Shown here piece after piece: positions 29,301-31,035 of a stretch of 64,000 nucleotides of DNA. The notes under the pieces are model-generated. The model was not told the origin of the DNA, made no database searches, and was given only the letters and a program-made list of their open reading frames with translations. The position numbers and the translations under genes were made by a program. Within the stretch, counting starts at the first letter, position 1; each line of letters begins with the position of its first letter. The stretch lies in assembly GCF_055900595.2 (NCBI RefSeq), contig NZ_CM148325.1, one strand, 5' to 3'.

Positions 29301-31035
29301 ATATACCCTTGGTCGGTCAAAAGATGAGTTTCAGGCTCTGGCCCGGGCAGAAGATCTACAGGTCGCTGGCGGGACGGCAATCGTCTACGCAGGTACGCTG
29401 GCGGATGCATCGGTCAGTGGCGCGACAGGAAGCCTGTCGTTAATGACGCCACGGGATAATGTTACGCCAGTTAAACTTGAAGGGGGGGTCCGGATTACCG
29501 ATAGCGCGACATTAACTATCGGAAATGGCGTCGATACGACGCTTGCCGACCTGACGGCTGCCAGCCGGGGCAGTGTCTGGCTTAACAGCAATAATTCCTG
29601 TGCAGGCACCAGCAACTGCGAATATAGAGTAAACAGTTTGCTCCTCAACGACGGTGATGTTTATTTATCAGCACAAACAGCAGCGCCTGCCACAACTAAC
29701 GGTATCTACAATACGCTGACCACCAGTGAACTTTCCGGCAGCGGTAATTTCTACCTGCATACCAACGTTGCAGGCTCCCGGGGCGATCAACTGGTCGTCA
29801 ACAACAACGCCACTGGCAATTTTAAAATCTTTGTTCAGGATACCGGCGTCAGCCCTCAGTCTGACGACGCGATGACGCTGGTGAAAACAGGGGGAGGGGA
29901 TGCTTCGTTTACGCTGGGTAATACCGGCGGTTTCGTTGATCTTGGGACCTATGAGTATGTCCTGAAAAGCGACGGCAACAGCAACTGGAACCTGACCAAT
30001 GATGTCAAACCCAACCCGGACCCCAACCCAAATCCGAAACCGGATCCAAAACCAGACCCAAAACCGGATCCGAAACCAGACCCGACTCCCGATCCAACGC
30101 CGACACCCGTCCCGGAGAAACGCATCACGCCTTCTACGGCAGCCGTACTCAATATGGCAGCAACATTACCGTTGGTCTTTGATGCTGAGCTAAACAGTAT
30201 TCGCGAGCGGTTGAACATAATGAAAGCGAGTCCACACAACAATAATGTCTGGGGGACGACGTATAACACCCGTAATAATGTCACCACCGATGCGGGTGCC
30301 GGGTTTGAGCAGACGCTGACCGGAATGACGGTGGGGATCGATAGCCGTAATGGTATTCCTGAGGGGATTGCGACGCTGGGCGCTTTTATGGGTTATTCCC
30401 ATTCACATATCGGTTTTGATCGTGGAGGACATGGCAGTGTGGGCAGTTATTCTCTGGGGGGCTATGTCAGCTGGGAACATGAAAGTGGTTTCTATCTGGA
30501 CGGTATCGTGAAGCTGAACCGCTTTGAAAGTAACGTAGCCGGTAAAATGAGCAGCGGTGGAGCCGCCAACGGCAGTTATCGCAGCAACGGGCTGGGCGGT
30601 CACATTGAAACCGGGATGCGATTTACCGATGGTAACTGGAACCTGACGCCGTATGCATCGTTAACGGGGTTCACCGCTGACAACCCCGAATATCATTTAT
30701 CCAATGGTATGGAATCGAAATCAGTCGATACCCGCAGTATATATCGTGAACTGGGCGCAACGCTGAGTTACAACATGCGTCTGGGGAACGGCATGGAAGT
30801 TGAGCCGTGGCTGAAGGCGGCTGTGCGCAAAGAATTTGTCGATGATAACCGGGTGAAAGTGAATAATGACGGTAATTTTGTCAATGATTTGTCGGGCAGA
30901 CGTGGAATATACCAGGCAGGTATTAAAGCCTCATTCAGCAGTTCGTTAAGCGGGCATCTCGGGGTGGGGTATAGCCATGGTGCCGGTGTGGAATCGCCAT
31001 GGAACGCGGTGGCTGGTGCGAACTGGTCGTTCTGA
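26362..31035 (+). CDS. ypjA: Large AIDA-type autotransporter adhesin (YpjA-like)
   Basis: ORF 26233..31035; start at MNRTSPHYCRRSVLSLLISALIYAPPGMA (signal peptide); about 1000 aa of ~19-aa passenger repeats, a Pro-rich linker and a C-terminal beta-barrel ending in an aromatic residue (NWSF). Confidence 0.85.
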   Translation: MNRTSPHYCRRSVLSLLISALIYAPPGMAAFTSNVIGVVNDETVDGSQKVDERGTTNNTHIINHGYQDVYGGVSNGSIIESGGRQYVSANGTHQGQANNTVINGGSQTILDGGISTGTIIQSGSQYVYAGGTSNATTIISGRSTVMGGTANGTIINGGSQSVSSQGRVDGTTINMSGHQEITQGSLATNTTIDGGWQYVDSSSVENTTIKNGGEQRTVKSHALNTTIDGGLQVVDSSTAEITTIKSGGTQQLNNSQAMFTTIEGGTQSMNSKSTAKNTQIYSGGTQIVDNTSTSDVIEIYSGGVLDVRGGMATNVTQHDGAALKAMTDWSTVSGTNSEGAFSIHNNVADNVLLENGGHLDVYGSANKTIIKDKGTMSVLANAKADATRIDNGGVMDVAGNATNTIINGGTQNINNHGIATGTNINSGTQNIKSGGKADTTNISSGSRQVVEKDGTATGSNISTGGSLIVYTGGIAHGVNQETGSALVANTGAGTDIEGYNKLSHFTITGGEANYVVLENTGELTVVAKTTAKNTTVDAGGKLIVQKEAKTDTTRLNNGGVLEVQDGGEAKHVEQQSGGALIASTTSGTLIEGTNSYGDAFYIRNSEAKNVVLENAGSLTVVTGSRAVDTIINANGKMDVYGKDVGTVLNSAGTQTIYASATSDKANIKGGKQTVYGLATEANIESGEQIVDGGSTDKTHIKGGTQTVQNYGKAINTDIVSGLQQIMANGTAEGSIINGGSQVVNEGGLAENSVLNDGGTLDVREKGSATGIQQSSQGALVATTRATRVTGTRADGVAFSIEQDAANNILLANGGVLTVESDTTSAKTQVNAGGREIVKTKATATGTMLTGGEQIVEGVANETTINDGGIQTVSANGEAVKTTINEGGTLTVNDNGKATDIIQNSGAALQTSTANGIEISGTHQYGTFSIAGNLATNVLLENGGNLLVLAGTEARDSTVGNGGAMQNLGQDFATKVNSGGQYTLGRSKDEFQALARAEDLQVAGGTAIVYAGTLADASVSGATGSLSLMTPRDNVTPVKLEGGVRITDSATLTIGNGVDTTLADLTAASRGSVWLNSNNSCAGTSNCEYRVNSLLLNDGDVYLSAQTAAPATTNGIYNTLTTSELSGSGNFYLHTNVAGSRGDQLVVNNNATGNFKIFVQDTGVSPQSDDAMTLVKTGGGDASFTLGNTGGFVDLGTYEYVLKSDGNSNWNLTNDVKPNPDPNPNPKPDPKPDPKPDPKPDPTPDPTPTPVPEKRITPSTAAVLNMAATLPLVFDAELNSIRERLNIMKASPHNNNVWGTTYNTRNNVTTDAGAGFEQTLTGMTVGIDSRNGIPEGIATLGAFMGYSHSHIGFDRGGHGSVGSYSLGGYVSWEHESGFYLDGIVKLNRFESNVAGKMSSGGAANGSYRSNGLGGHIETGMRFTDGNWNLTPYASLTGFTADNPEYHLSNGMESKSVDTRSIYRELGATLSYNMRLGNGMEVEPWLKAAVRKEFVDDNRVKVNNDGNFVNDLSGRRGIYQAGIKASFSSSLSGHLGVGYSHGAGVESPWNAVAGANWSF
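30004..30113 (+). repeat. Tandem short repeats encoding a PNPDPKPDP proline-rich linker within the autotransporter
   Basis: Near-periodic AAACC(G/A)GA(T/C)CC(G/A) units encoding PNPDPNPNPKPDPKPDPKPDPKPDPTPDPTPTPVP. Confidence 0.8.

Follow-up and report, generated by a model that had tools for sequence, protein, structure and literature searches.

A proline-rich linker tract of variable length in the YpjA/EhaD autotransporter of Escherichia coli

The R2 repeat of Bordetella pertactin is unresolved, being loosely structured, in the crystal structure of the protein (PMC8931430), and TibA, the self-associating autotransporter of enterotoxigenic Escherichia coli, contains an 'additional proline-rich domain' between the junction region and the membrane domain (PMC3835316). 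The autotransporter YpjA has been grouped phylogenetically with TibA, AIDA-I and Ag43 as biofilm-forming autotransporters, with no YpjA structure published (PMC9289746). Here we analyze the corresponding region of YpjA (EhaD) as encoded in a stretch of 64,000 nucleotides from contig NZ_CM148325.1 of the RefSeq assembly GCF_055900595.2 (hereinafter, the window, by which we mean this entire stretch). The placement resembles that in pertactin R2 and TibA: a proline-rich repeat at or near the C-terminus of the passenger precedes the translocator. Very probably, this X-Pro coding repeat specifies an unstructured, probably extended spacer between the folded end of the passenger and the subsequent alpha-helix, and is a hot spot of in-frame insertions and deletions (indels) that arise via misalignment of direct repeats.

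The tract and its core are the following:
30007..30114, plus strand: proline-rich (X-Pro)18 linker tract, KPNPDPNPNP(KPDP)4TPDPTPTPVP, a degenerate tandem repeat with units of 6, 12 and 24 nucleotides, to which all length polymorphism maps
30037..30084, plus strand: core (KPDP)4, consisting of two 24-nucleotide units, AAACCGGATCCAAAACCAGACCCA and AAACCGGATCCGAAACCAGACCCG, identical in 22 of the 24 positions

The 36 codons of the tract are in frame with a long plus-strand open reading frame (ORF), and proline occupies every second position (18 of the 36 residues). From position 30007 on, the codons of the first block are AAA CCC AAC CCG GAC CCC AAC CCA AAT CCG; the four KPDP units are encoded by AAA CCG GAT CCA, AAA CCA GAC CCA, AAA CCG GAT CCG and AAA CCA GAC CCG, the differences among these 12-nucleotide units being located in synonymous third positions; and the last block is ACT CCC GAT CCA ACG CCG ACA CCC GTC CCG. 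Tandem Repeats Finder delineates an array at 30009-30097 (period 24, 3.8 copies, 77% matches, score 94) and an overlapping one at 30019-30085 (period 12, 5.6 copies, 74% matches); the YpjA tract is the sole tandem array with a score of at least 50 in the window. The periodicity of the tract at lags of 6, 12 and 24 nucleotides exceeds that in all 20,000 base shuffles so that, by both the score and the shuffle test, the head-to-tail arrangement of the units is beyond chance. The preliminary description of this DNA, made from the sequence alone, had placed the repeats at 30004-30113 and called them near-perfect. The peptide and the unit sequences given there are correct, whereas the end coordinate is one base too low to complete the codon, and the codon at 30004-30006, directly before the tract, is GTC (Val); similarly, 'near-perfect' aptly characterizes the core (30037-30084) but not the whole array, which is only 74-77% matched.

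For comparison, we used 5,426 complete E. coli genomes, approximately 2,520 to 2,560 of which carry the region, and fetched 23 loci. Among 24 sequences, there are 14 tract lengths, namely, 24, 28, 30, 32, 34, 36, 38, 40, 42, 44, 46, 62, 80 and 84 amino acids (aa), with the 36 aa allele found in the window, 38 aa in K-12, 40 aa in O157:H7 and O145, and 44 aa in O55:H7. The segment containing the tract is bracketed by the conserved codons GTYEYVLKSDGNSNWNLT and EKRITPSTAAVL. All length differences are multiples of 6 nucleotides that preserve the reading frame, as expected of copy-number variation of whole units. Thus, the suggestions that the repeat expands and contracts among ypjA alleles and that such indels are in frame and alter the length of the linker are borne out by this copy-number comparison: the alternative of an identical repeat number in all alleles fails given the 14 lengths. 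The change by whole units also holds, although the unit of change has to be redefined because the granularity is that of the 6-nucleotide X-Pro unit and not just that of the 12-nucleotide unit, the gained or lost blocks spanning 6 to 42 nucleotides.

The variation is local and recurrent. Nine tract lengths (67 to 133 nucleotides) are found between flanks that show no mismatches to K-12 in 680 nucleotides, and these 680 nucleotides of flanking sequence align without gaps in all loci. The allele of strain PKF8 is the K-12 allele minus 24 nucleotides, with no other mismatches in 1,683 nucleotides, and at least nine genomes that are unrelated in their hosts and laboratories of origin carry an allele of this length. 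When eight alleles were aligned over 1.7 kilobases (kb), the sole indel outside the tract was a 1-nucleotide frameshift. Every variant within the K-12 haplotype differs either by one block of 6 to 42 nucleotides between direct repeats of 3-19 nucleotides or by a tandem duplication (+6, +12 or +24), and the very block of 24 nucleotides that is deleted in PKF8 is duplicated in VG48B2.

Two further haplotypes present the same picture. In O55:H7 and in O157:H7 TX 265-1, the tract differs from that in O157:H7 9234 by one 12-nucleotide AACCCAAATCCC unit, with identical flanks. For the window haplotype, a 24-nucleotide contraction was constructed and then searched for; this allele is present in strain SCU-172, which lacks one of the two 24-nucleotide core units and is 99.6% identical to the construct, with 2+2 flank mismatches in 680 nucleotides. 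The tract length of SCU-172 recurs in a search match from strain GN25, the haplotype of which is similar, with 98.5% identity across the 477-nucleotide query.

Three genomes, 2012C-4221, XJ34 and ETEC4069, encode near-pure (Asn-Pro)n linkers of 62, 84 and 80 aa, respectively, built of 20 to 35 AAYCCR hexamers, in ypjA coding sequences that are much shorter, 3.4-3.5 kb instead of 4.6 kb. These arrays are far more regular than that in the window and may behave differently.

The tract resides at a well-defined boundary within the encoded protein:
26362..31035, plus strand: coding sequence of ypjA/ehaD, an AIDA-type classical autotransporter of 1557 aa (identified from the ORF, Pfam, the RefSeq annotation of matching genes and comparison of starts)
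29629..29997, plus strand: Pertactin-like C-terminal passenger (junction/autochaperone) domain (PF03212, E=5e-45; aligned to residues 430-534 of P.69 pertactin, 1dab; beta-strands in the AlphaFold2 model)
30130..30219, plus strand: alpha-helical linker, predicted to pass through the barrel pore (helix 171-200 of the model; the alignment with Vag8, 7akv, resumes at residue 163; the conserved ITPSTAAV motif starts here)
30238..31029, plus strand: outer-membrane beta-barrel translocator domain (PF03797, E=2.6e-45; the BrkA barrel, 3qq2, aligned at 189-471; barrel strands in the model)

The identity of the locus is evident from its neighborhood (recN, nadK, ypjCB) and from the annotation of the matching genes as 'adhesin-like autotransporter YpjA/EhaD', and the window gene is orthologous to K-12 ypjA, with 94.6% identity over 4.2 kb. 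The start was set at ATG 26362, in agreement with the RefSeq start of the K-12 protein (MNRTSP), and the resulting N-terminus, MNRTSPHYCRRSVLSLLISALIYAPPGMAAF, matches the K-12 start and resembles, by eye, a Sec signal peptide. The mechanically delineated ORF reaches 43 codons further upstream, to GTG 26233, and contains another in-frame ATG, at position 26353. The AIDA family (PF16168) matches the protein in 11 stretches (E=5e-140) which, together with PF03212, identifies a repetitive beta-helical passenger, and Pfam, the alignments with BrkA and Vag8, and the model all indicate the type Va architecture, with a 12-stranded C-terminal barrel that follows an alpha-helical linker.

The claim that the repeat marks the junction between the passenger and the translocator holds on three counts that agree with each other, namely, the Pfam borders, the alignments with solved structures and the AlphaFold2 model. 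According to Pfam, the Pertactin domain stops 3 residues short of the tract, and the Autotransporter beta-domain begins 45 residues after it; the alignments with solved structures cover the sequences on either side, bypassing the tract: that of P.69 pertactin extends to the residue immediately before it, that of Vag8 picks up at the final residues of the tract, and that of the BrkA barrel follows. The model covers the C-terminal 471 residues, with 20 aligned homologues as the input, and has a mean predicted local distance difference test (pLDDT) of 84.6 and a predicted template modeling score of 0.79. In this fragment, the pLDDT is below 50 in two segments only, 133-164 and the loop 19-27, the tract corresponding to residues 130-165. 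The tract is modeled as coil without secondary structure, preceded by beta-strands and followed, after 5 residues, by the helix 171-200 and the barrel.

Three apparent features of this region were rejected. A minus-strand ORF of 112 aa (29949-30287) and a 64 aa ORF in the +2 frame (29999-30193) are low-complexity shadows of the repeat, and a match to trypanosome procyclin (Trypan_PARP, PF05887; 31.2 bits against a gathering cut-off of 100) is a compositional one, between Asp/Lys-Pro and Glu-Pro repeats.

Among paralogues and orthologues, the linker between the conserved GTYEY..W.L and ITPSTAAV anchors varies widely. In YejO, it consists of about 10 residues and is almost proline-free (AENRAQ); in close homologues, including that from Escherichia albertii, (PDPK)-type repeats make up linkers of 23 to 35 residues; and the homologues from Citrobacter, Klebsiella and Salmonella have tracts rich in E/P, T/P or V/P. 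The longest linker in this comparison, in one homologue, is 69 residues, the proteins retrieved being those of up to ~820 aa, that is, not full-length YpjA alleles. Judging from these alignments, the proline-rich spacer evidently is an optional element, inserted at a constant junction and variable in length, that would not be needed for secretion in this family.

The window is E. coli DNA, but beyond the tract, too, the neighborhood of ypjA stands out as variable. The best identity of the segment 22000-36000 of the window among the 5,426 genomes is 96.2%, with the adjoining segment 36000-46000 being 100% identical in several genomes, and the exact allele combination of the window is absent from this collection; the ypjA segment is hypervariable and probably recombining. 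Strain 2020CK-00188 encodes an 'AIDA repeat-containing protein' at another locus, between ymgG and minE (L006, 2660-7336). The 3' 3.87 kb of this gene are 98.9% identical to the window ypjA (27177-31044), with an identical proline-rich tract, and the 5' part is ~80-82% identical, a pattern suggestive of gene conversion between autotransporter loci that are paralogous, or of transfer from one to the other. At 160 nucleotides downstream of ypjA lies the transfer-messenger RNA gene ssrA (31196-31557, minus strand; tag ANDENYALAA). In K-12, the cryptic prophage CP4-57 is located between ssrA and ypjA; in the window strain, the ssrA integration site appears to be unoccupied. The C-terminal region of ypjA is present in only ~47% of complete E. 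coli genomes, and in natural isolates, the gene is often inactivated (loci L003, L004, L014, L017, L020 and L021, and H176): there are frameshifts in GF47, O55:H7 RM12579 and O157:H7 TX 265-1, N-terminal truncations in PKF8, VG48B2 and Res13-Lact-PEB20-37-A, and an IS1 insertion in strain 20A24.

The length alleles of the tract can be explained as follows. The 6-nucleotide units that encode X-Pro dipeptides are ordered, in this case, into higher-order units of 12 and 24 nucleotides, and the coding DNA is pieced together from short direct repeats, CCAGACCC, CCAAAACC and AAACCGGATCC among them. Misalignment between these would delete or duplicate entire blocks, by either replication slippage or unequal recombination, both of which are compatible with the data. 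Because the blocks are multiples of 6 nucleotides, the frame and the X-Pro pattern are kept and only the length of the linker changes. As suggested by the topology of autotransporters, the spacer would be located outside the cell, between the exit of the barrel and the base of the passenger, and would set the distance between the two; changes in its length would be tolerated or subject to weak selection only. The K-12-type tract contains 19-nucleotide perfect direct repeats and has many variants, whereas the window-type tract, in which the longest exact direct repeat is 11 nucleotides, has a single one, the 24-nucleotide contraction. More variants with longer repeats is the direction predicted by misalignment although, with non-uniform sampling, this trend is suggestive only.

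Several observations weigh against this explanation. When synonymous codons were resampled according to the codon usage of the gene, with the peptide of the tract kept constant, the periodicity and the longest repeat of the actual sequence turned out to be typical (P = 0.92, 0.58 and 0.73), so that the homogeneity of the DNA repeat does not go beyond that dictated by the peptide; the regularity of the window allele is no greater than that of a random synonymous coding, and the allele is not a recently homogenized array. Recent expansion or concerted evolution, which would have left extra homogeneity in the DNA, was accordingly rejected, given that the resampled sequences are at least as periodic and contain exact repeats that are just as long. 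The window-type haplotype (~620 genomes at 99% identity or higher) yields the -24 variant and no expansions, and specifically, a +24-nucleotide expansion of the window-type allele was not found among the 5,426 genomes; the 525-nucleotide spans belong to other haplotypes (MB53, O55:H7 and O157:H7 TX 265-1). Furthermore, ~95% of the sampled genomes have tracts of 36, 38 or 40 aa, each with its own flanking haplotype, 3-4% diverged from the others. With the common lengths tied to their haplotypes in this manner, most of the standing length difference must be old and inherited.

To obtain these frequencies, the ranked matches were sampled twice at even intervals, giving 38 and 57 full-length rows, respectively. 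The 38 aa tract accounts for 19/38 and 28/57 rows (one of the latter spanning one extra base), the 36 aa tract for 12/38 and 19/57, and the 40 aa tract for 6/38 and 8/57. A 30 aa tract was encountered once (1/38) in the first sample and not in the second, and tracts of 44 and 80 aa once each (1/57) in the second sample and not in the first; one further row in the second sample is disrupted by IS1. On the laboratory scale, the K-12 derivatives MG1655, BW25113, DH5alpha and HST04 share one length. Overall, the tract appears to change far faster than substitutions accumulate in the flanks and far slower than phase-variable contingency repeats.

It is conceivable, though unlikely in our view, that the length of the linker is a tunable stand-off, selected to match the thickness of the O-antigen or capsule or to evade antibodies against the stalk, in which case the tract would be an evolvability device rather than a site of neutral drift. 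If this were the case, the range from 24 to 84 aa would translate into ~7 to 26 nanometers of a fully extended polyproline-II rod, and the long (Asn-Pro)n alleles would represent a distinct, more mutable state.

We find it quite improbable that the tract is a contingency locus at which length changes at high frequency within a population, driven by diversifying selection by the immune system or phages, and brings about rapid antigenic or functional switching. The multiple alleles, the recurrent events and the surface-exposed location are compatible with this possibility, as are the long AAYCCR runs in the 62 to 84 aa (Asn-Pro)n alleles, which are expected to be much less stable. However, given that all changes are in frame, a change in length cannot switch expression on or off. 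Long perfect tracts, to which the (Asn-Pro)n alleles come closer, are lacking in the window allele with its 11-nucleotide longest perfect repeat; the K-12 laboratory lines are of equal length although decades apart; the rare lengths make up a few per cent of the sampled genomes; and the frequent presence of ypjA as a pseudogene speaks against strong ongoing selection. The tract is thus a slowly varying coding minisatellite and not a phase-variable switch.

The opposite possibility, that the lengths reflect nothing but old allelic divergence spread by homologous recombination, with no special mutability of a repeat that would simply result from selection in favor of a proline-rich peptide, seems more improbable still. 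The link of the 36, 38 and 40 aa tracts to diverged haplotypes and the regularity of the DNA, which stays within what the peptide requires, are as such inheritance would have it. This scheme does not accommodate the nine lengths on K-12 flanks with 0/680 mismatches, the second such case provided by O55:H7 and O157:H7 and the third one by SCU-172, the location of all junctions in direct repeats, or the lack of indels in the flanks of all sampled loci against 14 lengths of the tract. As the sole explanation, inheritance is largely refuted. Finally, although low-complexity repeats are error-prone and some of the variants (L008, L011 and L014) come from a single genome each, the strains with single-genome variants being Z1323PEC0012, VR50 and VG48B2, sequencing or assembly artefacts are a most improbable source of the length variants, considering the clean 6-nucleotide multiples with intact frames, unlike homopolymer errors, the recurrence of several variants in independent genomes of different host and laboratory origin (at least nine for the PKF8 type, and three, four and four for the 519-, 513- and 501-nucleotide spans, respectively), and the size of the tract (~100-250 nucleotides), which fits within a single read of any current technology.

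As the public genomes document, the YpjA/EhaD stalk is a bona fide hot spot of in-frame indels, represented by 14 or more lengths. In practical terms, typing or calling of adhesin variants by alignment at ypjA should anticipate length alleles, the tract itself can be used as a typing marker of modest resolution, and the natural series of linker lengths is available for testing stand-off in work on surface display or adhesion with YpjA. The general understanding of autotransporters or of repeat instability is unchanged by this result, which is ordinary for bacterial surface proteins.

Compared to the known systems, the YpjA tract is most readily likened to the R1 (GGxxP)n and R2 (PQP)n repeats of Bordetella pertactin, which are likewise proline-rich tandem repeats of an autotransporter that differ in copy number among alleles and species on a slow timescale, and the domain of YpjA just upstream of the tract is homologous to the C-terminal region of the pertactin passenger. 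In contrast to the YpjA tract, which follows the end of the pertactin-homologous region and precedes the alpha-helical linker, R1 and R2 have been described as beta-helix loops, and their units and sequence are different; furthermore, vaccine-driven selection has been discussed for pertactin, whereas nothing comparable is known for YpjA. The proline-rich domain of TibA is alike in its architectural position. With the variable-number tandem repeats, or coding minisatellites, of bacterial surface proteins, the YpjA tract shares head-to-tail coding units, in-frame gain and loss, length differences among strains and junctions in direct repeats, but departs from the typical case in the very short, 6-nucleotide units, the degeneracy at synonymous sites, and the exchange of 6 to 42 nucleotide blocks between imperfect repeats. 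Repeat misalignment as the underlying cause is also common to the contingency loci of Neisseria and Haemophilus, unlike which the window allele of YpjA involves no frameshift or promoter switching, contains no long perfect tract and is apparently stable over laboratory timescales. An earlier description of the ypjA length polymorphism was not found in a literature search that left most subscription journals outside its reach; polymorphic coding repeats rich in proline are a familiar feature of surface proteins, and YpjA adds a new, well-documented example.

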